From positions 59,367 to 123,366 of the forward strand of contig JAWODM010000014.1 in assembly GCA_046483305.1 (NCBI GenBank): a stretch of DNA of 64,000 bases, given 5' to 3'. A model generated the notes under the pieces. It ran no database searches and was not told where the DNA came from. It saw only the letters and a program-made list of their open reading frames with translations. The stretch comes from Candidatus Krumholzibacteriales bacterium. Its GTDB lineage: Bacteria > Krumholzibacteriota > Krumholzibacteriia > Krumholzibacteriales > WJIX01. The position numbers and the translations under genes were made by a program. Below are positions 1-19,487 of this stretch, in pieces. How positions within the stretch are numbered: position 1 is the stretch's first letter; each line of letters opens with the position of its first letter.

Positions 1-2494
1 CTACCCCGAGATTACTCCCCGGATAACAGAGAGGATAGATTATGAACTGAGGGTTATCAGGGAGATGGGGTTCTCCGGTTATTTTCTGATAGTATGGGAT
101 ATTGTTAAATCCGCCAAGAATGCCGGGATCCCGGTGGGGCCGGGGAGAGGTTCCGCCGCGGGAAGCATAATATGCTACATACTGGGGATTACCAGTATAG
201 ACCCGCTTCGGAACGGACTCCTTTTCGAGCGGTTCCTGAACCCGGAGAGAGTTTCCATGCCGGATATCGATATCGACTTCTGCGACGACCGGCGGCAGGA
301 AGTAATCGATCACGTGGTGGAGACTTACGGGAAAGAAAATGTATGCCAGATAATAACTTTTGGGAGGATGGCGGCCAGAGCGGTAATCAGGGATGTGGGA
401 AGAGTTCTGATGGTTCCCTTCGGAGATGTTGACAGGCTGGCAAAGATGGTCCCGCCGCAACCGGGGATAACCCTTACAGAAGCTTTAGAGAACGTGCCGG
501 AACTCAGGGAACTTTACCGGAATGACGAAGAAATAAAAAGATTGCTGGATCTTTCGCTCTCTCTGGAAGGTATGGCCAGGCATGCTTCTACTCATGCCGC
601 CGGACTGGTTATAACACCGACTCCTCTGGTAAACCATGTCCCGCTTTTCAGGTCCAACAAGGGGGAGATCACCACCCAGTACGAGATGAAGATTCTTAAC
701 AGTATCGGCCTTCTCAAGATTGATATACTGGGTCTTAAAACCCTCTCCCACATATCCAACACACTGAAGCTGGTGAAGGGGCCGAAAGAGACCGGAATGA
801 AGCCCGATGAGATCCCCATCGAAGACGAAAAAGCTTTCAAACTGCTTCAGAAGGGTCAGACCGTAGGGATATTTCAGCTGGAGAGCGAAGGGATGCGGAA
901 TCTTCTGAGGCGGATCAGGCCGGCCGCCTTCCAGGATGTGATAGCAATAAACGCCCTCTACAGGCCGGGACCGCTGAGAAGCGGAATGGTTGACAATTTC
1001 ATCGAATGCAAGCACGGAAAGAAGAAAATAACTTATATGGATCCCCGGCTGGAACCGATCCTGAAAGAGACCTACGGGGTGATACTGTATCAGGAGCAGG
1101 TGATGCAGGTGGCCAGCGATCTGGCCGGTTTCTCCCTGGGCGAAGCGGATATATTGAGAAGGGCAATGGGCAAGAAGGACATGAAGGCGATGGGGCGGAT
1201 GCGGGAGCAGTTCATGAAGGGAGCGTCCGAGAGGGGGTTGGGGAAAAAGAAGGCTGAGAAAATCTTCGACCTGATGTCCAGTTTTGCGGAATACGGTTTC
1301 AATAAATCCCACTCTGCCGCTTACGCGATGGTTTCCATGCAGACGGCATACCTGAAGGCTCATTACCCGGCCGCTTTCATGGCGGCGGCAATGACCAATG
1401 ATATGGGTAATACCGACCGGCTGATGTTCCTTCTGGAAGAGTGCCACAGCCTGGGAATCGCGGTGCGCCCCCCTGACGTAAATTCCAGTCTGGTGGAATT
1501 CGGGTTGAGCGGAGGCGAGATAACATACGGGCTGGCGGCGATAAAGAATCTGGGTATACCCGCTGCCGGGGCGATTGTTGAGGCAAGGATGGATGGGCCT
1601 TTCGTGGACCTCTACGAAATGTGCGAAAGGATAAATCTCAGAAGCATAAACCGCAGGGCGATGGAGAGTCTGATCAAGAGCGGAGCTACCGATTCGCTTC
1701 CGGGAACCAGATCTCAGAAAATAGCTACCCTTGACGATGTCATCTCCCAGGCGCAGAAGAGGCAGAACGAGAAGGAGAGAGGGCAGACTATTTTTATTTT
1801 TAACGACGATCCCTCTTCGCCGGATATCTGCAATCTCAAGGACGTGCCTCCCTGGGACGAAGACAAGAAACTGAAGGAGGAGAGGGAATCTCTCGGTTTT
1901 TATTTTTCTGGCCATCCCCTGGACCGGTACAGGGATGTTCTGCGCTCGATAGTAAATACCGGCAGCGCGGACCTGGGCAGAAGGAAGAAGGGAAGAAACG
2001 TTATCATAGCCGGCCTTATTAACGGAGTAAGAGTAATACAGGACAAACGCGGCAACACCATGGCTTTCGTATCCATGGAGGATTTCTACGGTTCATTCGA
2101 AGCTATCGTTTTCGCCAGCTGCTACCGCAAAGCCAGAGAGGAGCTGGTAGAAGAGAACGCAGTAGTGATAAAGGGGAAAATATCAAACCGGGACAGGGGC
2201 GAAACCAAGATAATTGCGGATAACATCTATTCAATCGACAGGGCTCTCTCAGCGCTGGCCAGAAGAGTTGTCCTGACCTTGAAATCGAACAGTTTTAACG
2301 AGAAGAGCCTGGCCTCTCTAAAGGACCTGATGTCCAGATTTCCCGGAAGAAGGGAACTCGTTTTCGACTGGCGCGAGAATGGCAATGCGCTGTTCAGGAT
2401 AAAATCAGGGAACTGCAGCGTGGAACCTTCACTGGAATTTGTTGACAGAATCAGGAAAATAGATGGAGTGGAAAATGTTGAAGTTACGGTATAG
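1..2494 (+). CDS. dnaE: DNA polymerase III alpha subunit, C-terminal ~830 aa (5' end lies outside window)
   Basis: The open frame runs from position 2 with no stop. The product carries a DnaE polymerase core and beta-binding/OB-fold region (GYFLIVWD, NKSHSAAYA, FYFSGHPL motifs) and is collinear with bacterial DnaE. Confidence 0.9.
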   Translation, partial: YPEITPRITERIDYELRVIREMGFSGYFLIVWDIVKSAKNAGIPVGPGRGSAAGSIICYILGITSIDPLRNGLLFERFLNPERVSMPDIDIDFCDDRRQEVIDHVVETYGKENVCQIITFGRMAARAVIRDVGRVLMVPFGDVDRLAKMVPPQPGITLTEALENVPELRELYRNDEEIKRLLDLSLSLEGMARHASTHAAGLVITPTPLVNHVPLFRSNKGEITTQYEMKILNSIGLLKIDILGLKTLSHISNTLKLVKGPKETGMKPDEIPIEDEKAFKLLQKGQTVGIFQLESEGMRNLLRRIRPAAFQDVIAINALYRPGPLRSGMVDNFIECKHGKKKITYMDPRLEPILKETYGVILYQEQVMQVASDLAGFSLGEADILRRAMGKKDMKAMGRMREQFMKGASERGLGKKKAEKIFDLMSSFAEYGFNKSHSAAYAMVSMQTAYLKAHYPAAFMAAAMTNDMGNTDRLMFLLEECHSLGIAVRPPDVNSSLVEFGLSGGEITYGLAAIKNLGIPAAGAIVEARMDGPFVDLYEMCERINLRSINRRAMESLIKSGATDSLPGTRSQKIATLDDVISQAQKRQNEKERGQTIFIFNDDPSSPDICNLKDVPPWDEDKKLKEERESLGFYFSGHPLDRYRDVLRSIVNTGSADLGRRKKGRNVIIAGLINGVRVIQDKRGNTMAFVSMEDFYGSFEAIVFASCYRKAREELVEENAVVIKGKISNRDRGETKIIADNIYSIDRALSALARRVVLTLKSNSFNEKSLASLKDLMSRFPGRRELVFDWRENGNALFRIKSGNCSVEPSLEFVDRIRKIDGVENVEVTV

Positions 2495-3248
2495 GATACT
2501 TACGGCGGTTCTATCACTGTTCATGCTGGCTGCTGTTTCCGGCGCGGCAAACGCTCAGTTCCGGGAAGATATCAAAGTTATCGAGATACCGACGGCCGGT
2601 ATTATCCCTCATAAGAGCTATATGTATTCAGGTTCGATGGGCCCTTTCAACTCCCTTCTGTTCGGATTGGATGTAGGCCTCCACGACCGCCTGATGATGG
2701 GCGGTTCTTTCGGCCTGCAGAATTTTATCGGCAGGGGGGATATAGAATATAATGAGCGGCCGGAATTCAGAATAAGACTGAGATTGCTGGAAGAGATAAT
2801 AGGAGGGCCCGCTCTGGCGGTGGGAGTAAATACCCAGGGCCAGAATGAATGGTTTGAAGACCTGGAACGTTACGAGAGGAAATCGAAGGGCTTTTACGCC
2901 GTTTTCAGCAAAGGTTATAAACTCTGGAGGAGGTTTTCTCTCCATTTTGGGATAAACTATTCAATGGAGGATGAATATGAGGACGGTACCGACCTGTTCG
3001 GCGGCGTCAGCATAGAGACATTTCCGGGGATGATGATCCTGTGCGAATACTCGGCCGCTTTCAATGATGATGATGAGGACAATCCCAACCGGATGACCAG
3101 AGGCAGGGGGTATCTTGATCTGGGAGTCCGCTTCGATTACCGGGAGAATATGAGGGTCAGGTTGAATTTCCAGGACCTGTTGGAAAATTATATACCTGAA
3201 TCCGGGGTTTCCAGGTCGGTGGAAATTTCTTATATTAATTTTTTCTGA
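2463..3248 (+). CDS. hypothetical secreted/outer-membrane-like protein
   Basis: N-terminal signal peptide (LTAVLSLFMLAAVSGAANA) and beta-strand-like alternation, with a C-terminal INFF (terminal Phe typical of outer-membrane barrels). No recognised family. An alternative ATG at 2475 is possible. Confidence 0.4.
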   Translation: MEWKMLKLRYRILTAVLSLFMLAAVSGAANAQFREDIKVIEIPTAGIIPHKSYMYSGSMGPFNSLLFGLDVGLHDRLMMGGSFGLQNFIGRGDIEYNERPEFRIRLRLLEEIIGGPALAVGVNTQGQNEWFEDLERYERKSKGFYAVFSKGYKLWRRFSLHFGINYSMEDEYEDGTDLFGGVSIETFPGMMILCEYSAAFNDDDEDNPNRMTRGRGYLDLGVRFDYRENMRVRLNFQDLLENYIPESGVSRSVEISYINFF

Positions 3249-4265: not shown

Positions 4266-4295
4266 TTGACCTCGGTATATCTGATGTTCTATAAT
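4266..4295 (+). promoter_or_regulatory. sigma-70-like promoter (TTGACC - 18 nt - TATAAT) upstream of the Trm112-like gene
   Basis: Near-consensus -35 at 4266-4271 and a perfect -10 at 4290-4295 in an AT-rich spacer downstream of accA. Confidence 0.45.
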
Positions 4296-4595: not shown

Positions 4596-5003
4596 GTGAC
4601 CGTATTCACCCATTTTTCTGCCGGGGCCCTGCTTGGCTATTTCTCTCCCGGGTTAGCTTTCGCCGCTTTCCTGGGGCTGTTGAGTCATCTGCTGCTCGAT
4701 TATCTGCCGCATTACGACTTTGAGAATGTATGGCTGGAAATATTATTGGGCTGCGCCGTTCTGGGCTTTCTTATAGCGGGCAGGAGCTGCACCGCTAATA
4801 TCTGTATGGGAGGACTGGTGGCGGTGCTGCCGGATGTGGAGAATCTGCTCTGGAAACTGGGAGCGATCAGGCGGGAGAGGCGGATATTTCCATCTCACAC
4901 CGGCCTGATACCCCACGGAAGGGAGGCCGGAAGACTCAATCTGGCGGCACAGGTTGTTTTCTCTGCCACTGTTGTTGGTTTCCTGCTTTGGAGTAATAAA
5001 TGA
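4596..5003 (+). CDS. YdjM-like membrane-bound metal-dependent hydrolase family protein
   Basis: Small polytopic membrane protein with FTHFSAG and SHLLLDYLPH motifs resembling the YdjM/DUF457 family. Its stop overlaps the next gene's start (ATGA at 5000-5003). Confidence 0.45.
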   Translation: MTVFTHFSAGALLGYFSPGLAFAAFLGLLSHLLLDYLPHYDFENVWLEILLGCAVLGFLIAGRSCTANICMGGLVAVLPDVENLLWKLGAIRRERRIFPSHTGLIPHGREAGRLNLAAQVVFSATVVGFLLWSNK

Positions 5004-8000
5004 AAAGATTAATGATCATAATACTTGTTTTTGCCGTATCCACCCCGGCGCTGAGCTCCGAGCCTCAGGTGAGGATTATAGATTCTGACGGCAGGGGAAT
5101 GGTTGTGGAGGTAACCAGCCCTCCTTACCGGAGAATCCCCGGGCCTGGCGGCCCGGCCAGCGGAGGAGAGATAATAGAAGTTCCCGGTTATGAATTGATT
5201 ATGGAAGAAGACAGGCCGGTGCTTCCTCGCCGCAGGCATCTGTTCTCGGTTGGTTCCGTCTCTGAGATAAAAGTAGAAGTTATTGAAACCGAAACGGAAA
5301 TAATTGAGGGCGCCAAACCTGCCATATTCCATTACGGTTTTGAAATCAATCAGAATTTATGGGAGGGGGCCGGAATCCTGCCCGAAAAGGATAACAGCTT
5401 TGTATTTCTCAGAAAAGCCGGACTATACAGGAAGAAACCCCTCGCCCTGGTAGAGGTCCGGCCGGTGATTTTCAATGAGGAAACGGGGCGGATGACATTC
5501 GCTTCCAGGATTTTATTCAGAATCTCTCACAGTTTCTCTGAGCCGGAAAGAGGAGCGGGCCTGCCCGGTTTCATACTGGGCGCAGGGGACGAAAGCCCCG
5601 TTTCGATAAGCAGGCCTGAAGCGCGGCATTCAGATTTCCAGTTTGGAGAATCAGATCAGTGGGTGAGGCTGGAAGTTCCGGAAACGGGGATATACAGGGT
5701 CGATTATGACGCCCTTCATGATAATGGAATAAACCTGATGGGGATCGATCCCTCCGGGATACGAATCTTCTCAGGGGGGCATTTCTCACAGAATACCAAT
5801 CTTTTTCAGCAGCCGGAGTCAGTCGTGGACGGGGGAAGTTTCAAACAGGATTACAGTATGTCCGAGCATGCCATAAGGCTGGTTGGGATGGAGGACGGCA
5901 CCTTCGATCCCGGCAACTATATTCTGTTCTTTGGCGTGGGAGTGGAAGGGTGGACTGATTATCTGGAACCTGAGGCGGAATCTCACGAACGTTACGACAA
6001 TCTCTACGAAAAGAATAATGTCTACTGGCTGAGCCTGGGAGGAAACTTCGCAGGCGAACCGGCCAGAATGGAATCTCTTGATACCGCCCCCTCCGGCAGC
6101 TCGCCGGAGAACACCATTGATTCCTATATCGAGAGGCTCCATCTGGAGGAGGACCGGGAATATTTCCCGCTTATCTCCGACGACAGATGGGTATGGGATT
6201 TCCTGGTATCCGGGGGGAATAAATCCACCAGAAAGGAATTCAGCGTTCATGATATCGTGAGCAGCGGCTGCAGAATCAGAACTATCGGTTTCGGGGGAAA
6301 GGACAGCGTAACCGACCTGGCCAGGTGTTATCTCAATGACGTCCTGGTGGGGGAAATGGCCTGGATCGGCTCCGACGGCAGTTTCAACCCCGATACCCTT
6401 GATGTCAACGTATCCTCACTCAGAGAGAGCAGCAACTACTTTGAATACCGGAAAACAGACAGCGGGATGGAGATGAATATATACTGGTATCAGGTTTTTT
6501 ACGAGAGGTACCTCAGGCCCGATCCCGATTCCGGAGATCTTGATTTTTCCGCTCCGGGCGCCGGCGGATCCACCCGTTTCATCCTCACGGAGTTTTTCGG
6601 AGAAGACCCATTTATCTTCGATGTTACCGACTATTACAATCCGGTATTACTGGAAGGAGCATATTCTTCCAATGATTCGGTGATCTTCGATTACGGGCTC
6701 GGCACATCTTCCGGGCATTTCATGGCGGTTACCCCTTCCGGCATAAAGGAACCCGGGATAGAGAATTCAGGCAGTATTCCTTCGTTGAGGGATGAACAGG
6801 CGCCTTCCTCCATGGTTGTGATATACCACGGCGCCTTCGAGGAAGCCGCTCTCGAGTATGTGGCGCACCGTTCCGGAAATAATTCTCCGGGTGTGATAAG
6901 GGCGGTGGATATAGACGATGTCTATAATAATTTCTCCGGCGGGCTGAAGGATCCCCTGGCAATAAGAAATTATCTGAAATACCTGTATGACAACTATTCA
7001 GAGGGCGGGGAACCGGCGATAGAATACGCCCTGCTGATGGGAAAGGGAACTTTCGATCCCAAGGATATCAAGGGGGCGGGGAAGGATTTCATTCCATTCT
7101 TCTACAGGACCGTGGGGGGATTTAATGTTTTCGTGGAATACGATGACTTCCTGGCCAGGCTGGACGACACCGGCGACGACTTCGTGGATATCGCCATGGG
7201 AAGGCTGCCCTTTCAGAATTCGCAGGGGGCGGGTAATTACATGGACAAGCTCCGGGGTTACGAAGCGGAAGATAACAACGGCGCCTGGAAGAATAAACTC
7301 ATATTCGTGGCCGACGATGAACATCAGGGAGACAGCCACACGCAGTTTGAGCATATGCAGCAGACCGAACGGATGAGTTCCAACGCAATTAAGCGGGATC
7401 ATTTCGATATCAGCGAAGTTTATCTTCACGAATATCCATTTGACGGTTCCACCAAACCGGAGGCCGCGGCGGCTCTCGCGGAGGAATGGAATGAGGGAGG
7501 TCTGCTGGTCTGTTATTTCGGACACGGTTCTCCATACCAGCTGGCGGACGAGCTGGTACTTAAGAAGTCAGATATATATTCTCTGAATAACGGTAACCGG
7601 CTGCCCCTGTTCCTGCCTCTTTCCTGTTCGGTGGGGGATCAGGAAAAGTTATATGATACATCCCTGTCGGAAGATCTGATCCTCGCCGAAGGAAGGGGGG
7701 CTATTGCCTCCATCGCGGCGGTGACCATAACACTGCCCACCTGGAATGAGGATATGTGCCGTCTCTTTCTGCTGAGGTTGTGGCCGGAGGGGACCCTTGA
7801 TTCCGAAACGGTGGGGAAGGCCCTGAGTTACGCTAAAATAAACAGCCTGACCGCGTATCCCTATATCCTTTCCGGCGACCCCTCCATGAAAATGGCAATG
7901 CCCGAGCTCAACGTCAGGCATGATTACTCCACCATCGACACCCTGGTTACCGGGTTCAGATACTCGGAGAGGGGTTCGGTAATGGTGGATGGCTCTCTTG

Positions 8001-8914
8001 ACCCCGGGTTCAACGGAACCGCCGAAATAATCGTTCGGGAAGCAGAAAAGCGGTTTGAAGTTAATAATTATGATTATAACCACGAGGGCGCGGTAATGTA
8101 CCGGGGAACCTCGGAGATAACCGGAGGTATATTCGATTTCCAGTTTGTAGTGCCTCTTCGCTGCAGGATAGGCGACCGGGCCAGGCTTAGAAGTTATGTC
8201 TACAGCGATGATTACCGTGACGGCGTGGGCGCCTGTGATACCCTCAGGATTATCCAGAATTCCACGCCTCCGGCAAACGACGGGCCTCCCAGAGTCAGCA
8301 TGTACTTCAACAATATGGCTACCAGGGTTAAAAAGGGCTCGCGGCTGTTTGTTGATATAGCTGATGATAACGGTATAGCCATACTGGGCAAGGATCCCCA
8401 GAATTCGATATTGCTGGAGTTCGATGACAGCGGATACCCCATACAGGTTACGGATTATTTCCAGTATGATCATAATTCATACACCAGCGGAGGGCTGGAA
8501 TACTCACTGAATGAGGATTTTGATATCGGAGACCACTCGGTTCTCCTGAGGGTATTCGACAATCTCGGGGAGATGTCGACCGATACCCTGAACTTCTCCA
8601 TAGTCGAAGAGGGGGTGCATAAGATAAGTGATGCCTTTAACTTCCCCAATCCGCTGAGTGAGAGCACCAATTTTGTCTTCCAGCTTACCTCGCCGGCGAA
8701 GGTGAAATTTGCGATTTATAATCTTTCCGGAAAGAAGATCTGGGAGAGAAGGATCAGCGCAGTGGAAGGATACAACAGCATTTACTGGGATGGAACGGAT
8801 TATGCGAATAATACTGTCGCTAACGGAACTTATATATACCTGATAGACGCGAAATTCCCCGGAACACTGGGACGAAACGAGAAAGTGAAGGGCAAGGTGG
8901 TAGTTCTCAAATAG
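5000..8914 (+). CDS. porU: PorU-like peptidase C25 (gingipain family) protein with T9SS C-terminal domain
   Basis: Signal peptide. C25-type catalytic dyad context: GHGSPYQ (~7520) followed by LPLSCSVGDQ (~7625). C-terminal ~85 aa (8657-8914) match the T9SS sorting-domain pattern (FNFPNPLSE...YNLSGKKI...NGTYIYLI). Sits immediately upstream of a PorV-like gene, the conserved PorU-PorV arrangement. Confidence 0.65.
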   Translation: MKRLMIIILVFAVSTPALSSEPQVRIIDSDGRGMVVEVTSPPYRRIPGPGGPASGGEIIEVPGYELIMEEDRPVLPRRRHLFSVGSVSEIKVEVIETETEIIEGAKPAIFHYGFEINQNLWEGAGILPEKDNSFVFLRKAGLYRKKPLALVEVRPVIFNEETGRMTFASRILFRISHSFSEPERGAGLPGFILGAGDESPVSISRPEARHSDFQFGESDQWVRLEVPETGIYRVDYDALHDNGINLMGIDPSGIRIFSGGHFSQNTNLFQQPESVVDGGSFKQDYSMSEHAIRLVGMEDGTFDPGNYILFFGVGVEGWTDYLEPEAESHERYDNLYEKNNVYWLSLGGNFAGEPARMESLDTAPSGSSPENTIDSYIERLHLEEDREYFPLISDDRWVWDFLVSGGNKSTRKEFSVHDIVSSGCRIRTIGFGGKDSVTDLARCYLNDVLVGEMAWIGSDGSFNPDTLDVNVSSLRESSNYFEYRKTDSGMEMNIYWYQVFYERYLRPDPDSGDLDFSAPGAGGSTRFILTEFFGEDPFIFDVTDYYNPVLLEGAYSSNDSVIFDYGLGTSSGHFMAVTPSGIKEPGIENSGSIPSLRDEQAPSSMVVIYHGAFEEAALEYVAHRSGNNSPGVIRAVDIDDVYNNFSGGLKDPLAIRNYLKYLYDNYSEGGEPAIEYALLMGKGTFDPKDIKGAGKDFIPFFYRTVGGFNVFVEYDDFLARLDDTGDDFVDIAMGRLPFQNSQGAGNYMDKLRGYEAEDNNGAWKNKLIFVADDEHQGDSHTQFEHMQQTERMSSNAIKRDHFDISEVYLHEYPFDGSTKPEAAAALAEEWNEGGLLVCYFGHGSPYQLADELVLKKSDIYSLNNGNRLPLFLPLSCSVGDQEKLYDTSLSEDLILAEGRGAIASIAAVTITLPTWNEDMCRLFLLRLWPEGTLDSETVGKALSYAKINSLTAYPYILSGDPSMKMAMPELNVRHDYSTIDTLVTGFRYSERGSVMVDGSLDPGFNGTAEIIVREAEKRFEVNNYDYNHEGAVMYRGTSEITGGIFDFQFVVPLRCRIGDRARLRSYVYSDDYRDGVGACDTLRIIQNSTPPANDGPPRVSMYFNNMATRVKKGSRLFVDIADDNGIAILGKDPQNSILLEFDDSGYPIQVTDYFQYDHNSYTSGGLEYSLNEDFDIGDHSVLLRVFDNLGEMSTDTLNFSIVEEGVHKISDAFNFPNPLSESTNFVFQLTSPAKVKFAIYNLSGKKIWERRISAVEGYNSIYWDGTDYANNTVANGTYIYLIDAKFPGTLGRNEKVKGKVVVLK

Positions 8915-9008
8915 TATCCTGAATCTTTCCGGGGAGCGGAATGTTTACTGCTTGACCGGGTAAGGTAACAATTATTATTTTAAGGTGGTATCAAAGAGAG
9001 GAAATGAT

Positions 9009-10007
9009 ATGAAAAAAATTACTGCAGCTTTGTTGTCAGTCTTAACAGCAATTCTTCTGATCCCCGCCGGCGATACCTTCGCTCAGGGACAGGCGGGAGC
9101 ATACTGTCTGAAGATAGCGCCCGGCGCAAGAGCTAATGGAATGGGTGGAAGCAGTGTGGCTATGGTCGAGGACGCTACCAGTCTCTGGTGGAACCCGGCC
9201 GGAATGTCCATGCTGGAATATTCAATGGCGGATATAATGCATACCAAACTGGTACCTACACTGGCCGCCGATGTTTTCTTTGAATATGCCGGCATAGTTC
9301 ACCACCTGGGTAGCGGGATCAGTGTGGGGTTCGCTTTTCAGTACCTCTCCTACGGCGAGTGGGTGGCCACCGATGAAGGCGGAGAAGAGCTCGGAAACGC
9401 CAGCAGTTACGAGATGTCTCCCATGGTAGGCGCCTCCATGAAACTGGGCGAGAATTTCAGCGTGGGTATGAACTTCAAGTTTGTATATATCGATCTGGCG
9501 CCGAAGTGGGCTACGGTGGAGGGAGAAGAAGGTGTGGGGCATTCCGTGGGCCTGGATATAGGATGCCTTTACAGGATCCCTGAATTCAGCTATGCCGGCT
9601 ACAGGGTAACCGGATTGCGGCTGGGAGCGGCCATATCCAACCTGGGGCCGTCCATTACCTATATCGACAGCGATCAGGCGGCCCCTCTGCCCCGGACCGT
9701 CAGGGTAGGGTTCGGTTATACCGCAGTCAGCAGCGAGCTGTTCGAGGTGAACGTGGCAGGTGACGTGGAAAGGCTGCTGATAGACGGAGATATCGATCCG
9801 ATATATCATGCCGGGAGTGAGTTCGTCTATACCGACCTTTTCGCGGTCAGAGTCGGTTATCTGTATGATAAGGACGGCGACGTCAAGGGTGTAAGCTACG
9901 GGCTGGGATTCAATATAAGCAACCGCATCAGGATTGATTACGGTAACGTTCCCCAGCATGAGGACCTTGACAGAGTGCACCGATGGTCACTGGGCCTTAA
10001 TTTCTAG
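9009..10007 (+). CDS. porV: PorV/PorQ-family T9SS outer-membrane shuttle protein
   Basis: Signal peptide, then the hallmark LKIAPGARANGMGGSSVAMVEDATSLWWNPAGM motif (GARxxGMGG...NPAG) of the PorV/LptO family. Size and composition fit a beta-barrel and the C-terminus is LNF. ATG at 9009 follows RBS GAGAGG. Confidence 0.7.
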   Translation: MKKITAALLSVLTAILLIPAGDTFAQGQAGAYCLKIAPGARANGMGGSSVAMVEDATSLWWNPAGMSMLEYSMADIMHTKLVPTLAADVFFEYAGIVHHLGSGISVGFAFQYLSYGEWVATDEGGEELGNASSYEMSPMVGASMKLGENFSVGMNFKFVYIDLAPKWATVEGEEGVGHSVGLDIGCLYRIPEFSYAGYRVTGLRLGAAISNLGPSITYIDSDQAAPLPRTVRVGFGYTAVSSELFEVNVAGDVERLLIDGDIDPIYHAGSEFVYTDLFAVRVGYLYDKDGDVKGVSYGLGFNISNRIRIDYGNVPQHEDLDRVHRWSLGLNF

Positions 10008-10033: not shown

Positions 10034-13000
10034 TTGCGCTTAATTCGATATAGATGGTTATCTGCTGCGTTGCTACTGGTATCGTTAATCTTTCCGCGAA
10101 CCGGAAGCGCTTCGGACAAACTGCCGGTTCTGGAAAAACTCCCCTCGGGGAACCTGATCATAACGGGCCGCTACACGGCTGGCCGCCGGGAGAACTATCC
10201 GCGAAGAAGAAGGTTTAATTACGACCGGCCGTCCATGAGGGAATTCAAAAGGAGGGATGCCAGGCCTCCCCTTCGGTCTTCCGCGGAAGTATCCGGAACC
10301 CGGCACGTAGCCCTGATAAGAATAGGATTCAATACTGACCGGAAAGACGGCCTTTCCAGCCTGGATATAAATGCCGGCGAGGGTGGGTTTATCCTGGAGC
10401 CGGATCAAGACTGGATTATAGATCCCCCTCCGCATGACAGAGACTACTTTAACGCACATATGACCTGCCTGAGAAACTATTATCATGCTCAGTCCTGCGG
10501 CAGGCTCGATATTACCTGGGAAATATTCCCCGCCGCCGACAACAGCTGCTACAAGCTCTCCGACCTCGCCGATTACGGGCCCGGAAGCGGGATGTGGACA
10601 ACCGGCCAGCTGGTTGATTTTGTTCACGCCTCTCTGGATGTAGCCGATCCGGATGTTGACTATACCCGGTTCGATGCAGTGATTATAGCTCACGCCGGTC
10701 CAAATCTTCAGAGCGACGTAAACAATGATACCCCCAATGATGTCCCGTCATTCTTCGCCCGGCTGGGAGATGAAGACCGGTTTGAAACCGGCGACGGATT
10801 AATAATTACCGATTGTTCGGTAATTCCGGAGACCGGTATTCAGGATGGTTACTACTCCGGCATTTCGGCTGTTCTGGCCCATGAATTCGGCCATCAGCTG
10901 GGCCTTCCGGACCTGTACGATATTACCAGCGGCGGAACCGGCATAGGGATCTGGGGCAATATGGGAAGCGGCGGCCAGCTGGGAGTATCTCTGGGAGGGG
11001 AGCGGATAGACGGGATTATTCCTGCCGGCCTCAGCGCCTGGTCCCGGTACTACCTGGGATGGGTCGAGGCGGATACCGTGGAATCTTTCAGAGAGGCCAT
11101 GGAGATTCCCGCCGTGGAGAAGGTTCCGGCTGAGATAATAAGGATAGATATATCCAATGACGAATACTTTCTTATAGAGAACAGGTGCGTGGAGATTGAT
11201 CAGTATCTGACTCTCCTGATAGCCGACCAGGAAACCGGTGTGGTGCTGGGTGTCTACAACTGCAAAAACTGCACGGAAGAGAACATTTACGACGATGGAT
11301 TCATTTATGATCTTGAACTCTCCACCGAATATGACTGTCTTCTGCCGGTGGACCCGGATCTTCCCGCGGGGCCGTTTGACATTAAGCCTGATTTCGGGCC
11401 TGGCCTGCTGATATGGCACATAGACGAGAGGCTGATTGCGTCCAGGTGGGAGGATAACACGCTCAACAGCCGAGAACCATTCTCGATAAGGCTTATGGAA
11501 GCCGGGGGGGTTCTGGATATAGGCGATCCCACTTCGCCGCTCAGCTACGGCAATTACGATGACGCTTATTACCAGGGCAACAGCAATAGCTTTTCAGATG
11601 TGACCATACCCGGCGCGTGGAGTAATATGGGAGTCCCTTCGGGGGTGACGGTGGAGAATATCTCGGCCAGGGATACTGTGATGACTTTCGACGGAGGAAG
11701 AAGGGCGGTTCTTGAAGCGGGGAATATATTCGCCGATACGCTCCCTGCTGCCGAATGCCTGTTACCGGTGGGGAGCCAGCCCGGAATGCTGGCGGTTGAT
11801 CATCAGGGAAACGGCTGGCTGGACGGGATGCCATTCCCGGTTTTCAGCATTGGCTCTTCCCCGCTGCTTCCTTCTGCTTACGGGCCGGGTTTCGCGCTTG
11901 GCGGGGATGCGGTAATTATAGGAGATGCGGAAGGGTATATTCACGCGATTTCTATCTCAGACTGGTCTGAGGCTGGCGGGAACTGGCCGGTTGCCACCTC
12001 CGGATTGAGCGCATACCCGGTGGTTATGGAAATGGAAACAGGAATGGCGGTGGCGGCTGCGGATGAGGAGGGCAGAATTTCCGTGTTGAACAGCTCGGGC
12101 GTGGAAGAATATTCGTTTCAGCTGCCGTCAGGACAGGTAAACGCGGCTAACATTTCGGCTGTGGTCGATTCTGCGGGGCTTACCGGCCGGCTGATCTTCT
12201 TATCGGCGGGGGACAATTCGGTATACCTGTGGTGGTGGAATTTCATCCTCGGAGAGTCCGAATCCGTGAGACTTCCGGTTTCAGCTGATGAAGTATCGGG
12301 CGCCGCTGCACTGGCTGCCGGCGATATCCTGCCCGGGAAAACGGGTTTGGAGGTATATCTGACCGCTCTGCGGGCGGGAAAGATCTATCTCTGCTCCGCT
12401 GACGGGGTAATATTCGAGAGAGATCTCGGCCAGGGGGTCCAGCCCCCCGCGGTGGTGGATATCAACGGAGATACCGTTCTGGATATAGTAGTTACCGACG
12501 GAGAGTCCATATATGCCATCTCAGCTTCGGGGGCCAATCTTACCGGCTGGCCCAGGAAGATTAACGGCATGCATAATTTCCGGCGCAGGCAGAAGATAGC
12601 CGTTCCGGTTTCCGCTGTCGGAAGCGGAGGCGGGGCCAGGGTGATTGCCGTTTCGACGGACGGAATTATATTTACTCTGGATCACCGGGGGGAGCTGCTG
12701 GGCGGCGGCTATCCTGAAAGGATAGCCGGATCGGTAAGACAGGCGCCGCTATTTGTCGATATGGGCGGAGAAGGCGCTTTCGGTTTTATCGATGTCCTGG
12801 AGAACGGGACCGGAGAATATTACCAGAACAGGCCTGAGGCAATCAGAGTCAAATGGAGATCCGGGCCTTTCCGGCCGGATGAGATAGCGACTTCCTGGTT
12901 CGGCTCAAGCGCTGATGCAATGCGAAGATCGTTTGCGACTGGAGTGGGTAGATGGAGCAGCCCCTCGGCGAATTGGGCCGCCATGGACGATAACCTGATA

Positions 13001-13258
13001 ATTTATCCGAACCCGGTTGAGGGGGGAAGGGCCGGTTTTCAGTTCAGGGCTCCTTCCGGATCTCACGCTTCTCTGATGGTATTCAATATTTCCGGAGAGA
13101 TCGTGCTCCAGAGGGAAAAGAGGTGTGAGGGAGGAGAGGAACATGAAATACCGGTACAGCTGTCCGGCACCGGTTCCGGGGTTTACATCGCCCGCCTGGT
13201 GATTACCTCCGGAGGAAGAAGCTTCAAGACACTTAAGAAATTTGCTGTAGTAAATTAA
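10034..13258 (+). CDS. M6/immune-inhibitor-A-like zinc metalloprotease with FG-GAP repeats and T9SS C-terminal domain
   Basis: Signal peptide. HExxH zinc site VLAHEFGHQLGLPDLYD (HEFGH at 10880-10894). Downstream FG-GAP/VCBS-like repeats (VVDINGDTVLDIVVTDGES). C-terminus IIYPNPVEGG...MVFNISGEIV...GVYIARLV fits a T9SS sorting domain. Confidence 0.7.
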   Translation: MRLIRYRWLSAALLLVSLIFPRTGSASDKLPVLEKLPSGNLIITGRYTAGRRENYPRRRRFNYDRPSMREFKRRDARPPLRSSAEVSGTRHVALIRIGFNTDRKDGLSSLDINAGEGGFILEPDQDWIIDPPPHDRDYFNAHMTCLRNYYHAQSCGRLDITWEIFPAADNSCYKLSDLADYGPGSGMWTTGQLVDFVHASLDVADPDVDYTRFDAVIIAHAGPNLQSDVNNDTPNDVPSFFARLGDEDRFETGDGLIITDCSVIPETGIQDGYYSGISAVLAHEFGHQLGLPDLYDITSGGTGIGIWGNMGSGGQLGVSLGGERIDGIIPAGLSAWSRYYLGWVEADTVESFREAMEIPAVEKVPAEIIRIDISNDEYFLIENRCVEIDQYLTLLIADQETGVVLGVYNCKNCTEENIYDDGFIYDLELSTEYDCLLPVDPDLPAGPFDIKPDFGPGLLIWHIDERLIASRWEDNTLNSREPFSIRLMEAGGVLDIGDPTSPLSYGNYDDAYYQGNSNSFSDVTIPGAWSNMGVPSGVTVENISARDTVMTFDGGRRAVLEAGNIFADTLPAAECLLPVGSQPGMLAVDHQGNGWLDGMPFPVFSIGSSPLLPSAYGPGFALGGDAVIIGDAEGYIHAISISDWSEAGGNWPVATSGLSAYPVVMEMETGMAVAAADEEGRISVLNSSGVEEYSFQLPSGQVNAANISAVVDSAGLTGRLIFLSAGDNSVYLWWWNFILGESESVRLPVSADEVSGAAALAAGDILPGKTGLEVYLTALRAGKIYLCSADGVIFERDLGQGVQPPAVVDINGDTVLDIVVTDGESIYAISASGANLTGWPRKINGMHNFRRRQKIAVPVSAVGSGGGARVIAVSTDGIIFTLDHRGELLGGGYPERIAGSVRQAPLFVDMGGEGAFGFIDVLENGTGEYYQNRPEAIRVKWRSGPFRPDEIATSWFGSSADAMRRSFATGVGRWSSPSANWAAMDDNLIIYPNPVEGGRAGFQFRAPSGSHASLMVFNISGEIVLQREKRCEGGEEHEIPVQLSGTGSGVYIARLVITSGGRSFKTLKKFAVVN

Positions 13259-13268: not shown

Positions 13269-14264
13269 ATGTCAAGAGCAGGAAAGCGCATCACGGCGGC
13301 AGCGGTTCTGATACTGTTTCAGGCGGCCGGAAATTTCTCGGAGGCAGAAGGCAGCGGCCTTCTGACGGCTCCTTCCAGTCTGAAACTTTCCCATTCCGAA
13401 AGAATCGAAAGCAGAAGGAACGAAAGACTGGTCTCAATATTCGATCAGAACAGAGATTTCAGAATCGCCTCCGGCGGCAGCTCGGAGGAGGCCCTTCGCC
13501 TCAACGGGGAAAGGATTCTTTCTCCCGGTATGGTGGCACCTGACAGGGATTCCGGGCCATACACCGCTGCCGGCAGGAGAAAAAGGAATATGGCGATATC
13601 GATTATCGGCTCGGCCCTGCTTCCCGGGCTGGGCGAGATGTATATGTATTCCAGAACCGGAGAAAAATCGATCCTTGGCCGGGCTCTGGGGTTTATCGCG
13701 TTCGAAGCGTACCTGTGGTACGGATATTTGCACAATCACGACAGGGGCAAGGATTTCAAGCGTCAGTACGAAGAATACGGCGACGCTCACTGGAGCCAGG
13801 AAAGGTTCCTTCAGAACCATCCGATCTGTTATACTACCTTTCAGGGGGGGTGCGACAGCTGGCAGCAGTACAATGAGATAGGTTCAGATGATCACTCTTC
13901 AGAATATTTCTATTTCTTCTATACCGCCAAAGAGGTGGACAGGGAGGAATATTACGAGAATATGGGCAAATACGATGCCTTCCTCTACGGCTGGGACGAC
14001 TGGAACGGGGAGTACCTGCACGAGGGGGGAGAGCCCAACTACTGGACCCCTCATAGAACGTATTACTGGGACCTTCGGGGAGAGAGTAATAAATACCTGC
14101 TCAGGGCGGATTACCATGTAATGGGAATGATCGCGGCCAGGGTTGTTTCGATGGTCCAGGCCGGATGGATAGCCCACAACCGGGGGTCAGCGCCGGAGGA
14201 ATGGTCTCTGGAGATAGACAAATCACCCCTGGATTACAGATGCAGCATTAACTACAGGTTTTAG
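13269..14264 (+). CDS. hypothetical secreted protein, LPGLGE-motif family, paralog A
   Basis: Signal peptide. Central IIGSALLPGLGEMYMY...GRALGFIAFEAYLWYGY segment and a Y/E/W-rich region, ending INYRF. Shares architecture and motifs with the next gene. Confidence 0.5.
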   Translation: MSRAGKRITAAAVLILFQAAGNFSEAEGSGLLTAPSSLKLSHSERIESRRNERLVSIFDQNRDFRIASGGSSEEALRLNGERILSPGMVAPDRDSGPYTAAGRRKRNMAISIIGSALLPGLGEMYMYSRTGEKSILGRALGFIAFEAYLWYGYLHNHDRGKDFKRQYEEYGDAHWSQERFLQNHPICYTTFQGGCDSWQQYNEIGSDDHSSEYFYFFYTAKEVDREEYYENMGKYDAFLYGWDDWNGEYLHEGGEPNYWTPHRTYYWDLRGESNKYLLRADYHVMGMIAARVVSMVQAGWIAHNRGSAPEEWSLEIDKSPLDYRCSINYRF

Positions 14265-14278: not shown

Positions 14279-15154
14279 TTGCGTAAAATATTTGTTTTCA
14301 TAACAGTGATTTTCCTGCCGGTAAACCTGTTTTCCTCATCTCTTTCCATGGACCCGGCGCCGGTCCCTGAACCGGAACAGAAAAGGTCGGTTTTCAGAAG
14401 TTCATATTCGATAGGCGGTTCCGGCTCAGGTGGCATCAGGCTCTCTCTGGCCGGCAGGGAAGGGATCAAATTACAGCTCCTGAGCGCCAGGCGGGGCTAT
14501 GGCTTTGACGGCACCTTTGAACCCGGCAGCCGTGATTATTCCACAGGAGGGATTATAGCCCGCAATGTGCTTCTGCCCGGACTGGGCCAGCGGAAGATGG
14601 GACAGAGAATGCGCTCCCGGATATATTTTTTCCTGGAAGGAGCCGCCTGGGTGGGACTGGGCACGTTCTTCTGGCAGAAAATGGCCAGGACCGGCGCGTA
14701 CGAGGAGTACGCGGTGGCCTACGCCGGTGTGGAAGAAAAAGGGCTTTCAGAGGATTACTATGAGACCATCGGCAATTTCATGAGCAGCGACGGCCCGGGC
14801 GGGTATAACGAATATGTTATGAGAGAAGCCAGGGACCTTTACTACCCCGACCAGGAGGCCATACAGGACTATTATGAGGCCAATGCTCTGACTGGCGACC
14901 AGTCCTGGAGATGGCTTTCCGAGAGTACCTATGACAAATATAATTCACTCCGCAAGGGAGCAAACAGCTCCGAGAGAAGGGCGGTTTATTCCCTGTTCTT
15001 TATGCTGGGATTGAGGCTGATCAGCAACATCGATGCGGTCAGGTCTATTATGACCGATGAAGGAGATCAGGAGCAGGCCGGACAGGGCGGGGCAGCCATA
15101 GATATTCATCAGAACGGGGAAGGTATTTCCGTCGTTCTGAAACGGCCCTTCTGA
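14279..15154 (+). CDS. hypothetical secreted protein, LPGLGQ-motif family, paralog B
   Basis: Signal peptide. IIARNVLLPGLGQRKMG...LEGAAWVGLGTFFWQ segment, DYYE/YYP-rich region and C-terminal Phe. Paralogous to 13269-14264. Confidence 0.5.
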   Translation: MRKIFVFITVIFLPVNLFSSSLSMDPAPVPEPEQKRSVFRSSYSIGGSGSGGIRLSLAGREGIKLQLLSARRGYGFDGTFEPGSRDYSTGGIIARNVLLPGLGQRKMGQRMRSRIYFFLEGAAWVGLGTFFWQKMARTGAYEEYAVAYAGVEEKGLSEDYYETIGNFMSSDGPGGYNEYVMREARDLYYPDQEAIQDYYEANALTGDQSWRWLSESTYDKYNSLRKGANSSERRAVYSLFFMLGLRLISNIDAVRSIMTDEGDQEQAGQGGAAIDIHQNGEGISVVLKRPF

Positions 15155-15210: not shown

Positions 15211-16122
15211 ATGCGGAAATTACACCGGTTGATTCTATTGTTAATTTTTGTTCCGGCGGCGGTTCATGCCGCCGTGCAGGAGGAAGAGCCTGCTGCCGGG
15301 GATTATCCGAATATAGTGGAAGCTGATTCGGTTCTTGCCGGGCTGAAGGAACCGCTGGGAATCTCCGCCGGGGCCCGCGGCGGGATATATGTGGCCGACG
15401 GGATGAGCGGCAAACTTTTCAAATATATGGCCGGCCGGGAAGTTCTCGAATTTCCGGTGCCCCGGTCGCTTGTTTCGATATATCCGGTTGATGTGGCGGC
15501 CGGAGCGGACCCCTTTATATATGTACTGGATTACTCCTCCGGGAATGTACTAAGATACGACTACAGGGGAGGATATCTGGATGTACTTATATCGTTCGAT
15601 GATTTCAAGCCCTCTTCAATATCGGCGGGAGCGGGAGGGAGCTTTATTCTGACAGATATGGAGAATCATTCGGTCCTGGTACTCAATCCCCTCCTGGACA
15701 GAGAGGTGGAGATAGAGGGTTACGGCTGGGAAGCGGGCTTTTTCAATAAACCGGCGAAAGCTGTAATACTGCGGGACGGGAGGCTGGCGGTTGCCGATAC
15801 CGGCAACCGGAGAGTGCAGATATTTTCGTCCTCGGGCCTCTATCTGAGGCAGTTATCCCCGCCGGACAGCCTTGGCTTCAAATCTCCAAGGTCGCTCTGC
15901 TGCGGCCCGGAGGGAAATATATTCGTTGCCGATACCGGGAGGGGTTCGGTTTTTGCCTACTCGCCCGGAGGGGAATATATCACCGCGATAGATTCCTATT
16001 CGGGAAAGAAAATATCGCCTTCCGCCCTCACTGTCGATCTGAATGATAACCTTTTCGTTGCCGATCTGCTTTCCAGGTCGATTCTCATATACAGGCTTGT
16101 TTATCCGGACAATGAGCGATGA
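15211..16122 (+). CDS. NHL-repeat beta-propeller protein, secreted
   Basis: Signal peptide. Repeated VADTGNRRVQIFSSSG and VADTGRGSVFAYSPGGEY segments typical of NHL repeats. Confidence 0.65.
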   Translation: MRKLHRLILLLIFVPAAVHAAVQEEEPAAGDYPNIVEADSVLAGLKEPLGISAGARGGIYVADGMSGKLFKYMAGREVLEFPVPRSLVSIYPVDVAAGADPFIYVLDYSSGNVLRYDYRGGYLDVLISFDDFKPSSISAGAGGSFILTDMENHSVLVLNPLLDREVEIEGYGWEAGFFNKPAKAVILRDGRLAVADTGNRRVQIFSSSGLYLRQLSPPDSLGFKSPRSLCCGPEGNIFVADTGRGSVFAYSPGGEYITAIDSYSGKKISPSALTVDLNDNLFVADLLSRSILIYRLVYPDNER

Positions 16123-19100
16123 AGCGTTACTCCCTTTCTATTATTATCATGGTTGTATTCACCCTCGCGCCTCTGCGGGCAAATCCGCTCGCGGAGCCGG
16201 GAAGAGGTCCGGTTTCGAGTAAGTCTTTTATCCTTTCGCCGGGCCAGAGCCGTATCGATACCGGCATATCTTTCATAAAACCGGGTTCCGATTCCCTTAT
16301 CATTGACGGCAGGGAAATCGAAAGGGGTGCCGGATACCGGATCAGTTCCCTCAGCGGGGTGATTATCCTGAACAACCCCGCTGAAGGCGGAGAGATGGCG
16401 ATCCTGTATTACAGCAGGTTCCATTTCCCCTTTCCCCCAGTGATGGCGAGAAGGTTCCCCGGAACCGGGGAGGCGCCTTTCAGAACTCCCCTCGCGGATA
16501 CTGCGGCGCTGTTCAGCAGTAAGAAAATTAATCCCTACCGCCTCAACGTTTCGGCCAGCAAATCGGTGGGATTCTCGGTAGGTTCCGCGAGAGGGGTGGG
16601 GATAGATCAGAGCCTGAGAGTGACCATTGCTGGAAAACTTGCCGAAGACCTGGAGGTCAAGGCGTTCCTTTCCGATGACGACCTGCCGGTACAGCCGGAA
16701 GGGAACACCGAGGAGCTCAAACGCCTGGACCGGATATCCATAAATATCAGGAGCAGGCATACCGAAGTAAAGCTCGCCGATTTTGCCTCCTCCCTGGACT
16801 GGTCCGTCTTTTCTTCCTTCGACAGGGAGCTCAGGGGAGGGGAGATTACGGTAAAAGCGGCCGGTCAGCGTTTCATGACAGGCGGAGGCATAGCCAAGGG
16901 CAGGTTTGAAACTATCAACATCACGGGGCGCGAAGGCGTTCAGGGCCCCTACCAGCTTCTGTCCGCCCGGAGGTTCAACGGAGTAATAGTGATTCCGGGT
17001 TCAGAGTCTGTATACCTGAATGGCAAATTAATGAAGAGAGGCCAGGAGAACGATTATGTCATAGATTACAACAGGGCGTCGGTTGCCTTTACCGAGAGAG
17101 TGCCGGTAACCGACGATTCGGAAATCGTAATAGAATTCCAGAAGGGCGAGAGCAATTACGAGCGGAATACCTTCATGGGGGGATGGTCCGCCCCCCTCCG
17201 GGAAGGCGCTGTCAATATCAGGGCCTTCTTCCTGACCGAGAGCGATGATAAGGACTCCCCTCTGGCCGGAGAGTTTACCGACGAGGAGATTTCAGCCCTG
17301 GCGGCGGCGGGAGACAACCCTGACAGCGCCTTTGCGTCCGGGGTGGAGAAGACAGATGAAGGGGGCAGCGGCTACATCTATTCGGAGGCGGATTCATATT
17401 TCGTGTTTGTAGAATCAGGCGCTGAATACCAGCTGGATTTCTACAAAGCCGCAGGCGGGGGGGATTATGATACCGACGGGTTTTCTTCCAGCGGAGAGCT
17501 GAAGTACCGTTACGTTGGCGAGGGAGAAGGGGATTACAGAATAGGCAGGCGGCTCCCCCTTCCTGAAAGGAAGGATCTGGTGGCGGTATCCGCCGATGCC
17601 GGGTCCGATCATCTCTTTCTGAGGGCGGAAGGAGATTTCAGCAGGCATGACAGGAATACCCTGTCCGGGCTCGATGACGGCGACAACAACGGGGCCGCCT
17701 ATACAGTGGAGGGGGGCCTGAGAGGGTTCGATTTTCTGGAATCAACCCTCAATCTGAAAGGAAGTTACTCATCGCTGGAGAGCTCGTTTGCCGCTCCCGA
17801 CCGGGTCCGCAGGGCCTATTTCTACAGGAACTGGAACCTGGAGGGAGTAGAGCTTGAAGGAAGGGAGAATATATCGGGCCTGAAGCTGAACTGGGAAAGG
17901 GACCGGTGGTGGAAGCTGGAAGGGAGCTACAGCAGGTTGACCCGAACCGGTGGGACCTCTGCGGGACGGGGGCGGGCTGAGGGAGAACTGGGGAATCCGG
18001 AAAACAGGGGGTTAAGGTTCCAGTGGCTGAGAACGGAGAACTCCGACCGGAGAAAACGGGAATTCGCTCTGGCGAAAGGGGTGTTTGCGATGTGGAAGCT
18101 GGTTCCGGGGATTACCCTGGACCGGGAGAGGTACCGGAGTTTCAGCCCCGCGGGGGCGGATACCGGAAGGTATTACAGGCAGGGAAAAATCTTTCTGGGA
18201 ACCCGGGATCTGAAAGGTTTCGATGCAGGTATCTCTTTCAACCGCAGGCTTACCGATAACCTGAGAGAGAGCGGCGGCGCGTGGTTCAGGGCCAGGGAGA
18301 ACGACGAGATTATTTTGAACGGTTCATACTCCGGTGGAACCAGGATGATAGATTTCTTTCTGAGCCACCGGGAGAGCGATGAGATAGAGTCTGGAAGCTC
18401 CAGCACCTTTGACCTGGCCAGGATCAAGTACCGGGATTCATACAGGCCGCTGGGGGTCGCTACCGACATCGGCTACAGGATCACTTCCGGCGAGGAGAGA
18501 AGAAGAGAAAGAGCTGTTATCTTCGTGGGAGAGAATCAGGGAGATTACGATGAAGAAGGCAACGAAGTGGGCCAGAAGAGGGGCGACTATATGCTTGTGT
18601 ACATCCCCGGAACGGGTACCGAAGGGGTCAGGACGGTTGAGCTGAACTGGAAGCTGAGCTTCGGGGATGGAATCAGGGGGTTCGGTTCAATGACGGATGA
18701 GGATGGCGGCCTGTTCAACCTGATAAAGAAGAATGTATCCCTGGACCAGATATTCTCTCTTTCCGAAAAATCAACCACCGATGAACTCTTCCGGCTCTAC
18801 ATCATGGATCCCGATCTTCTTCAGAGGGATGACGTGACGGTTGAAGGGTACAACCGGCTCAGGCAGGAATGGAACTTCCTCAGGGACGTCAGGAAGTACA
18901 ACCTCGGTTTTACCTTCTCCAGGGAGGACAGGGAGGATAACAGGACTGAAGGGGCTTCATCCAGCAGCTATCTCAGGGAGATGAGGCTTAAATCGGAGTA
19001 TTTGCCGGTTCCCTCACTGAGCATATCCCTGGAAGGAACCAGGACGGACAGAAGCAGTATTTCTGATAACAGGGCGGTACAGAGCTACGATATCCTCGCC

Positions 19101-19487
19101 TATACCCTCTCCAGCGCTCTCGGCTACAGGAGAGGGCCCAACGCCCGTTTCTCGGTGGAATTCTCCGGGCAGGACAGGGAGGATTACCTCTCAGAGTCCA
19201 GGCAGAATTCGTATTCATTCAAACCTTCAGCCAGCATCTCTCCGGCCGGGGATATAAACATAAGGACTTTCTACAAGTTTACCTACACAGATGTGAAGAA
19301 CGACGGGGGGCAGCCCCTGTTCTTCCTGGAGGAGGGGGTAAGGCAGGACTGGAACATCTTCAGCCGTTACCAGGTGGGAAAGCACATAAGCGTGGGACTT
19401 AACTATACCGGCAGAAGGGAAAAGGATTTCAGGGAGGAGGTGAAGACTGTCCATGCGCTCAAGGTTGAAAGCAGGGCTTATTTTTAG
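16119..19487 (+). CDS. large (1122 aa) hypothetical outer-membrane-type protein
   Basis: Cleavable signal peptide. Composition rich in alternating R/E/D/G/S/Y typical of beta-barrel proteins. C-terminal ESRAYF with terminal Phe. Start overlaps the upstream stop (ATGA). No family recognised by eye. Confidence 0.5.
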   Translation: MKRYSLSIIIMVVFTLAPLRANPLAEPGRGPVSSKSFILSPGQSRIDTGISFIKPGSDSLIIDGREIERGAGYRISSLSGVIILNNPAEGGEMAILYYSRFHFPFPPVMARRFPGTGEAPFRTPLADTAALFSSKKINPYRLNVSASKSVGFSVGSARGVGIDQSLRVTIAGKLAEDLEVKAFLSDDDLPVQPEGNTEELKRLDRISINIRSRHTEVKLADFASSLDWSVFSSFDRELRGGEITVKAAGQRFMTGGGIAKGRFETINITGREGVQGPYQLLSARRFNGVIVIPGSESVYLNGKLMKRGQENDYVIDYNRASVAFTERVPVTDDSEIVIEFQKGESNYERNTFMGGWSAPLREGAVNIRAFFLTESDDKDSPLAGEFTDEEISALAAAGDNPDSAFASGVEKTDEGGSGYIYSEADSYFVFVESGAEYQLDFYKAAGGGDYDTDGFSSSGELKYRYVGEGEGDYRIGRRLPLPERKDLVAVSADAGSDHLFLRAEGDFSRHDRNTLSGLDDGDNNGAAYTVEGGLRGFDFLESTLNLKGSYSSLESSFAAPDRVRRAYFYRNWNLEGVELEGRENISGLKLNWERDRWWKLEGSYSRLTRTGGTSAGRGRAEGELGNPENRGLRFQWLRTENSDRRKREFALAKGVFAMWKLVPGITLDRERYRSFSPAGADTGRYYRQGKIFLGTRDLKGFDAGISFNRRLTDNLRESGGAWFRARENDEIILNGSYSGGTRMIDFFLSHRESDEIESGSSSTFDLARIKYRDSYRPLGVATDIGYRITSGEERRRERAVIFVGENQGDYDEEGNEVGQKRGDYMLVYIPGTGTEGVRTVELNWKLSFGDGIRGFGSMTDEDGGLFNLIKKNVSLDQIFSLSEKSTTDELFRLYIMDPDLLQRDDVTVEGYNRLRQEWNFLRDVRKYNLGFTFSREDREDNRTEGASSSSYLREMRLKSEYLPVPSLSISLEGTRTDRSSISDNRAVQSYDILAYTLSSALGYRRGPNARFSVEFSGQDREDYLSESRQNSYSFKPSASISPAGDINIRTFYKFTYTDVKNDGGQPLFFLEEGVRQDWNIFSRYQVGKHISVGLNYTGRREKDFREEVKTVHALKVESRAYF

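Follow-up and report, generated by a model that had tools for sequence, protein, structure and literature searches.

Probable type IX secretion genes porU and porV, with two predicted cargo proteases, in an uncultured Krumholzibacteriota bacterium

Does an uncultured member of the Krumholzibacteriota use a type IX secretion system (T9SS) to process exported proteins at its surface? The question is raised by two adjacent genes in a 64,000-nucleotide (nt) stretch of contig JAWODM010000014.1 from Candidatus Krumholzibacteriales bacterium; this whole stretch is called the window here. An initial annotation had described their products as a PorU-like C25 peptidase with its own sorting domain and a PorV-like barrel, and had regarded sorting-domain proteins downstream as cargo. 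Our analysis indicated, with a probability of about 0.88, that the two genes are porU and porV of a T9SS and that two predicted cargo proteases are encoded close to them. This reading is carried by the family assignments from sequence, by conservation of the catalytic dyad and of the gene order, by the fold predicted for PorV and by three C-terminal sorting domains (CTDs). The features of the two genes are as follows (aa, amino acids).

5000-8914, +, porU, T9SS C-terminal signal peptidase/sortase family protein, 1304 aa, with an N-terminal signal peptide (NCBIfam NF033707, PDB 6za2_A, NCBI naming)
6812-7894, +, Peptidase C25 catalytic domain of PorU, residues 605-965 (Pfam PF01364)
7523-7525, +, predicted catalytic His842 of PorU
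7625-7627, +, predicted catalytic Cys876 of PorU
8642-8911, +, type-A CTD of PorU (TIGR04183, FlgD_ig)
9009-10007, +, porV, compact PorV-type FadL-like outer-membrane barrel, 332 aa (PF19572, NF033709, 6h3i_F, AlphaFold2 model)

Both open reading frames named in the initial annotation exist (5000-8914, +, 1304 aa; 8985-10007, +, 340 aa), and the only correction concerns the porV start, which is probably 9009. Minus-strand frames within the two genes (e.g. 7649-8473 and 9222-9980) were taken as shadow frames, lying wholly inside strongly supported genes.

The PorU protein

The NCBIfam PorU sortase model NF033707 matched the 1304-aa protein at 543.5 bits (cutoff 420; E=8.9e-163). The match was near full length, with residues 218-1289 covering profile positions 4-1082 of 1095, and it bore out the PorU-like identity first proposed. 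Within this span the whole Peptidase_C25 profile (PF01364) was matched with E=2e-70. The annotation had also pointed to a GHGS...LPLSCSVG context typical of C25 peptidases, and both motifs were located: GHGS occupies residues 841-844 (...VCYFGHGSPYQ...), and LPLSCSVG contains Cys876 (...LPLFLPLSCSVGDQ...). The N-terminus is hydrophobic and reads as a Sec signal peptide (MKRLMIIILVFAVSTPALSS). At the other end, the sorting-domain-like tail was recognized by TIGR04183 (27.2 bits, cutoff 23, residues 1215-1282) and by Pfam FlgD_ig (28 bits, cutoff 27).

We aligned 19 PorU homologues from three phyla (Krumholzibacteriota-like metagenome-assembled genomes (MAGs), Cloacimonadaceae and Flavobacteriia). 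G841, H842 and C876 were invariant and, within the CTD, so were the PNP and G/Y positions. All 17 related loci likewise retained GHG and SC. The sole PDB sequence match was PorU of Porphyromonas gingivalis (6za2_A, E=5.6e-46, residues 574-1294). The GHG and catalytic Cys columns align with that structure, the Cys standing opposite the Cys of TATCDF in the P. gingivalis protein. By sequence, the 1304-aa protein is thus a PorU family member with a conserved His/Cys catalytic dyad. The sortase activity, i.e. cleavage of CTDs by transpeptidation, would follow by analogy with the characterized enzymes.

The likeness to P. gingivalis PorU (PG0026; PDB 6za2) extends to the C25 fold, the aligned GHG and Cys, a C-terminal CTD, putatively of the retained type, and a porV gene directly downstream. 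The two differ in phylum, and the window PorU is ~25% identical to Bacteroidota PorU proteins. It is also ~150 aa longer than the P. gingivalis protein, mostly at the N-terminus, and is nearer in length to flavobacterial PorU (~1270-1295 aa). In P. gingivalis the surface anchor is A-type lipopolysaccharide (A-LPS).

Gingipains share the C25 domain and the CTD, and a weak Propeptide_C25 match (18.5 bits, cutoff 22) was found. The protein could therefore be a secreted gingipain-like protease, a T9SS cargo and not a sortase. We consider this extremely improbable: the PorU-specific model was matched end to end above its curated cutoff, PorU was the only PDB sequence match, and flavobacterial PorU proteins have the same length and architecture. 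The PorU assignment is already known, having been made by the NCBI automated pipeline; identical sequences (MFO7914378.1 and MGM0483601.1) carry the PorU name there.

The compact PorV protein

The second open frame begins with a GTG at 8985. The true start is probably the ATG at 9009, giving 332 aa, because a ribosome-binding-site-like GAGAGGA precedes this ATG, because the orthologue in one relative is called at 332 aa, and because residue 9 of the long frame aligns with residue 1 of Flavobacterium johnsoniae PorV. The gene follows porU on the same strand after a gap of 94 nt, and the adjacency is kept in 20 related loci, 17 of them derived from GTDB.

The motif APGARANGMGG...LWWNPAG, from which the barrel had first been named, is present in the translation (...APGARANGMGGSSVAMVEDATSLWWNPAG...). 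Pfam PF19572 (PorV) matched at 79.5 bits against a cutoff of 27, and NCBIfam NF033709 (PorV/PorQ family) at 210 bits against 90 (E=6e-62). The profile searches for C25, PorU and PorV proposed in the initial annotation thus returned significant matches for both proteins. A profile built from 24 members of the PorV subfamily aligned end to end with residues 1-395 of F. johnsoniae PorV (6h3i_F, E=3.3e-50), the sole difference being one deletion of ~58 residues. This was also the sole significant PDB sequence match of the protein.

In the AlphaFold2 (AF2) model (predicted local distance difference test score, pLDDT, 87.3), a hatch segment at the N-terminus precedes 14 long strands. In a Foldseek search its best matches were PorV chains from translocon complexes, 8gl6_F (3.7e-20, template modelling (TM) score 0.77) and 6h3i_F, with TM scores in the range 0.75-0.77; FadL and TodX came next at ~1e-11. 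In F. johnsoniae PorV, the loop backbone at N87 contacts a conserved lysine of the CTD (PMC10994853). The corresponding loop in the window protein is LAAD, and its Asp is invariant across the subfamily.

Two properties of the second protein weigh against the reading given above. It missed the cutoff of the strict PorV equivalog model NF033710 (146.4 vs 250 bits); the initial claim of a PorV-like barrel is supported by PF19572, NF033709, the 6h3i_F profile alignment and Foldseek, with the equivalog score as a caveat. The protein also does not contain ~58 residues of F. johnsoniae PorV (roughly Fj residues 259-316), between strands 9 and 10. The NF033710 match was confined to profile positions 23-250 of 367, and this model is Bacteroidota-trained; the shortfall coincides with the missing loop and with phylum-level divergence. 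Judged from the strand order of the model, with the periplasmic loop 193-199 as a landmark (PMC10994853), the loop that joins these two strands and carries the deletion would be extracellular. Close relatives are uniformly ~330 aa, and this compact form is common to the whole Krumholzibacteriota/Latescibacterota/Eisenbacteria group, where NCBI names the protein "PorV/PorQ family protein".

The missed equivalog, set beside the passed combined model, brings up two alternatives to the cargo carrier PorV: PorQ, or a substrate channel of the generic FadL type. Weak Toluene_X and UPF0164 matches, and the position of FadL and TodX as the next structural matches, point the same way. However, the PorV equivalog score is about twice that of PorQ (78.6 bits; PorV2, 42.4), PorV is the only significant PDB sequence match, and the Foldseek E-value is eight orders of magnitude better for PorV than for FadL. 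The gene also stands directly after porU, as in P. gingivalis (PG0026/PG0027) and F. johnsoniae (Fjoh_1556/1555). We therefore regard the PorQ or FadL assignment as very improbable.

The evidence supports PorV as the identity of the second protein, with a fold assigned from its predicted structure. It resembles F. johnsoniae PorV (6h3i_F and 8gl6_F, the SprA-bound type-A carrier) in its full-length profile alignment and predicted 14-strand barrel, and both have an N-terminal ARAxGxG...WNPA segment and an LA(N/A)D loop. It differs in its length (332 vs 402 aa), in having ~58 residues fewer and in scoring under the PorV equivalog cutoff. By analogy, it would bind the CTDs of cargo and dock on both SprA/Sov and PorU.

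Cargo proteases and the secretion system

Two further proteins in the window carry CTDs of the same type as that of PorU.

10034-13258, +, M6-like (immune inhibitor A-type) metalloprotease, 1074 aa, predicted T9SS cargo (Peptidase_M6, TIGR04183)
10880-10894, +, HEFGH motif of the M6-like protease, intact
13001-13255, +, type-A CTD of the M6-like protease (TIGR04183, 27.4 bits, cutoff 23)
22314-29678, -, subtilase (S8), 2454 aa, with InhA-like MAM domains, second predicted T9SS cargo (Peptidase_S8, CTD models)
22317-22577, -, type-A CTD of the subtilase (TIGR04183, 33.7 bits, cutoff 23; Por_Secre_tail, 30 bits, cutoff 27)

The M6-like protease gene lies directly downstream of porV and that of the subtilase ~12 kb away. 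Pfam Peptidase_M6 matched the former at 39.4 bits (cutoff 22), and Peptidase_S8 matched the latter with E=1.2e-50. The PNP, G.Y and near-terminal Lys motifs are common to all three CTDs of the window. This supports the initial view that the CTD proteins near porU-porV are real T9SS cargo, a role predicted here from their domains and positions, and it supports treating CTD-bearing proteins of this MAG as exported. At least two large secreted proteases together with porU-porV would fit a protein-degrading lifestyle.

The M6-like protein also bears on a different reading of the locus, namely that the three genes form a separate PorU2/PorV2-type sorting system paired with the M6-like protein and not the canonical T9SS attachment machinery. 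The consecutive NCBIfam models NF052324, NF052325 and NF052323 describe the same three kinds of protein side by side, in the PorU-PorV-M6 order found here, and all three gave partial matches (175.6, 42.4 and 233 bits). For the M6-like protein, NF052323 was the best NCBIfam match. These scores are far under the cutoffs of 450, 325 and 600, whereas the canonical PorU (543.5 bits), PorV and PorV/PorQ models scored much higher and fit better. The NF052323 family is described as an inactivated metalloprotease, but the zinc site HEFGH is intact in the window and is kept in 14 of the 14 related loci having the gene. In addition, four related loci retain porU-porV without M6. A literature search on PorU2/PorV2 found nothing relevant. 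A PorU2/PorV2-type system is thus very improbable, and we retain canonical PorU and PorV. Separately, the M6-like protein looks, from its sequence, like an active counterpart of the NF052323 family.

The roles of PorV and PorU are described in PMC10994853 and PMC12365241; F. johnsoniae and P. gingivalis are the only organisms for which the carrier and sorting mechanism is known (PMC10994853, PMC12365241). By analogy with these Bacteroidota, cargo bearing both a Sec signal peptide and a CTD of type A would cross the outer membrane via a PorV-bound translocon. PorV, a predicted 14-strand FadL-like barrel, would deliver the cargo to PorU, which it would also tether at the cell surface. PorU, as a putative C25-fold cysteine transpeptidase (His842, Cys876), would remove the cargo CTD and then either free the cargo or join it to a surface glycolipid; a glycolipid anchor is proposed on the P. 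gingivalis model. PorU itself would be exported through its own CTD, and the M6-like metalloprotease and the 2454-aa subtilase would be cargo. The translocon and motor genes would lie elsewhere in the genome.

Three broader points belong on the same side as the two PorV shortfalls. When every substantial open reading frame of the 64-kb window was compared with NCBIfam, and many with Pfam, none of the PorK/L/M/N, SprA/Sov, PorW, PorT, PorZ, PorQ or PorP families was found. Beyond porU-porV, the T9SS-model matches were the CTDs and one TPR protein that reached the chance level for PorW/SprE (21 bits vs 250). To our knowledge, the biochemistry of PorU comes from Bacteroidota alone. A literature search for T9SS in Krumholzibacteriota or Latescibacteria found no paper. 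As to the first point, a lack of other T9SS core genes in the genome was the condition that the initial annotation had named as refuting its T9SS claim, and it was applied here to the 64-kb window. T9SS genes are usually scattered, so a window without core genes is not evidence of their absence from the genome, and at the level of the whole system the T9SS is putative.

Krumholzibacteriota was reportedly placed in the Fibrobacteres-Chlorobi-Bacteroidetes (FCB) group in the original description of the phylum, and NCBI taxonomy places the phylum immediately below Bacteria. Reviews already give T9SS as a trait found across the FCB superphylum (PMC11205867). The direct tests made here confirm a probable T9SS surface-processing pair in a Krumholzibacteriota genome and leave T9SS biology itself unchanged. 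Their forward value is limited to the compact, loop-less PorV subfamily and to a widespread giant barrel encoded in the same gene string.

Several minor features accompany the subtilase gene. Its product additionally contains CarboxypepD_reg, reelin-like and CBM56-like domains. A 256-aa GEVED-domain protein is encoded just upstream of its start, at higher coordinates (region 22314-30504, -), and a GC-rich hairpin with a 12-bp stem (22273-22304) lies just beyond its stop.

The nine-gene string and the rest of the window

The genes between 4596 and 21126 are on one strand and are packed tightly or overlap. The best promoter-like site ahead of them is at 4266-4295. Besides porU, porV and the M6-like gene, the string contains the following.

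4596-5003, +, 135-aa membrane protein, first gene of the string (open reading frame; 4-nt overlap between its stop and the start of porU)
13269-14264, +, uncharacterised secreted or membrane protein, 331 aa (co-occurs with porU-porV)
14279-15154, +, uncharacterised secreted or membrane protein, 291 aa (co-occurs with porU-porV)
15211-16122, +, beta-propeller protein with NHL repeats and a signal peptide, 303 aa (Pfam NHL, E=1.1e-22)
16119-19487, +, giant predicted outer-membrane beta-barrel, 1122 aa (AF2 model)
19453-21126, +, TamA-sized protein of the Omp85 family, 557 aa, containing POTRA domains; its gene ends the string (Pfam POTRA, 47.5 bits, cutoff 21.3)

The order PorU-PorV-(M6)-331 aa-291 aa-NHL-giant barrel-Omp85 is shared by 17 loci of Krumholzibacteriota, Latescibacterota and related MAGs, four of which do not have the M6 gene. 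A relative with a 64% identical PorU has the same arrangement: DnaE, a 257-aa protein resembling an outer-membrane protein, AccA, a Trm112-like protein, the 135-aa protein, PorU, PorV, M6, proteins of 328 and 290 aa, NHL and an 1122-aa protein. The 135-aa protein is conserved upstream of porU in four related loci, and Pfam and NCBIfam scans gave it no family match over threshold. In both the 331-aa and the 291-aa protein the N-terminus is signal-like, LLPGLG falls within hydrophobic sequence and the last residue is Phe; neither has a Pfam or NCBIfam match. Paralogy of the two was rejected, the short LLPGLG motif (E=0.08) being all that they have in common. The Omp85-family protein scored 93 bits with the BamA model TIGR03303, under its cutoff of 297.

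The giant barrel has a signal peptide and ends in ...RAYF. It has no family match and no PDB sequence match. Its AF2 model (pLDDT 81.5) contains ~38 long strands. The family is highly conserved, with a PVQPEGNTE motif, and is annotated as hypothetical everywhere. In a search set of one genome per GTDB species, the protein as a probe found more than 581 loci. The hosts include Krumholzibacteriota, Latescibacterota, Fibrobacterota-labelled MAGs, Calditrichota, Ignavibacteria/Melioribacter, KSB1, Kryptoniota and others. The NHL gene stands immediately upstream of its homologues across phyla, and the Omp85 gene is conserved downstream of them.

Calditrichota, Ignavibacteria, Melioribacter and other lineages have NHL-giant barrel-Omp85 alone, or the barrel gene alone. 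In the inspected loci of the Calditrichota type, it follows the ribosomal-protein gene rpsB and the tsf, pyrH and frr genes, with porU and porV not nearby. The rpsB-tsf-pyrH-frr context leads to bamA in Proteobacteria. Because other lineages have the barrel without porU/porV nearby, its linkage to porU/porV is clade-specific and not universal. The NHL, giant barrel and Omp85 genes form a three-gene module (Omp85 of 557-614 aa; loci L024, L028 and L040) that is conserved well beyond the clade with adjacent porU/porV.

It is conceivable that the nine-gene string is a self-contained outer-membrane module for export and attachment, in which the giant barrel, as a pared-down translocon, would work together with the compact PorV; we consider this unlikely.

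SprA was the top Foldseek match of the giant barrel. As a SprA/Sov translocon the protein was rejected: neither sequence similarity nor specific structural similarity was found, and the resemblance to SprA is not specific. None of the 83 fetched loci contained a SprA-sized gene for profile comparison.

One contig labelled 'Patescibacteria group bacterium' (DATKWS010000134.1) carries the 291-aa, NHL, giant barrel and Omp85 genes at 52% identity to the window. Patescibacteria have no outer membrane, so this contig is probably mis-binned or mislabelled.

The window is otherwise ordinary chromosome, with genes for DnaE, AccA, ThiC, a DinG-like helicase, HutU/HutI, EF-G, YebC, RuvCAB, QueA and Tgt. 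Scans of the window for tRNA genes and Rfam families gave no matches. Between dnaE and accA lies a gene (2463-3248, +) whose 261-aa product has a signal peptide, ends in ...YINFF and looks like an outer-membrane protein; it has no family match and is conserved at this position in five related loci. A 599-aa protein (40918-42717, +) contains a TonB-dependent-receptor Plug domain (27.7 bits) with no recognisable receptor barrel family, and its gene overlaps that of a 208-aa multi-pass membrane protein (40320-40946) without a family match. A type IV pilus block (43100-50980, +) encodes PilB, PilT, PilC, a sensor kinase, a sigma-54 response regulator and a PilA-like pilin; these genes, of a kind associated with surface motility or adhesion, lie ~20 kb from the T9SS genes.

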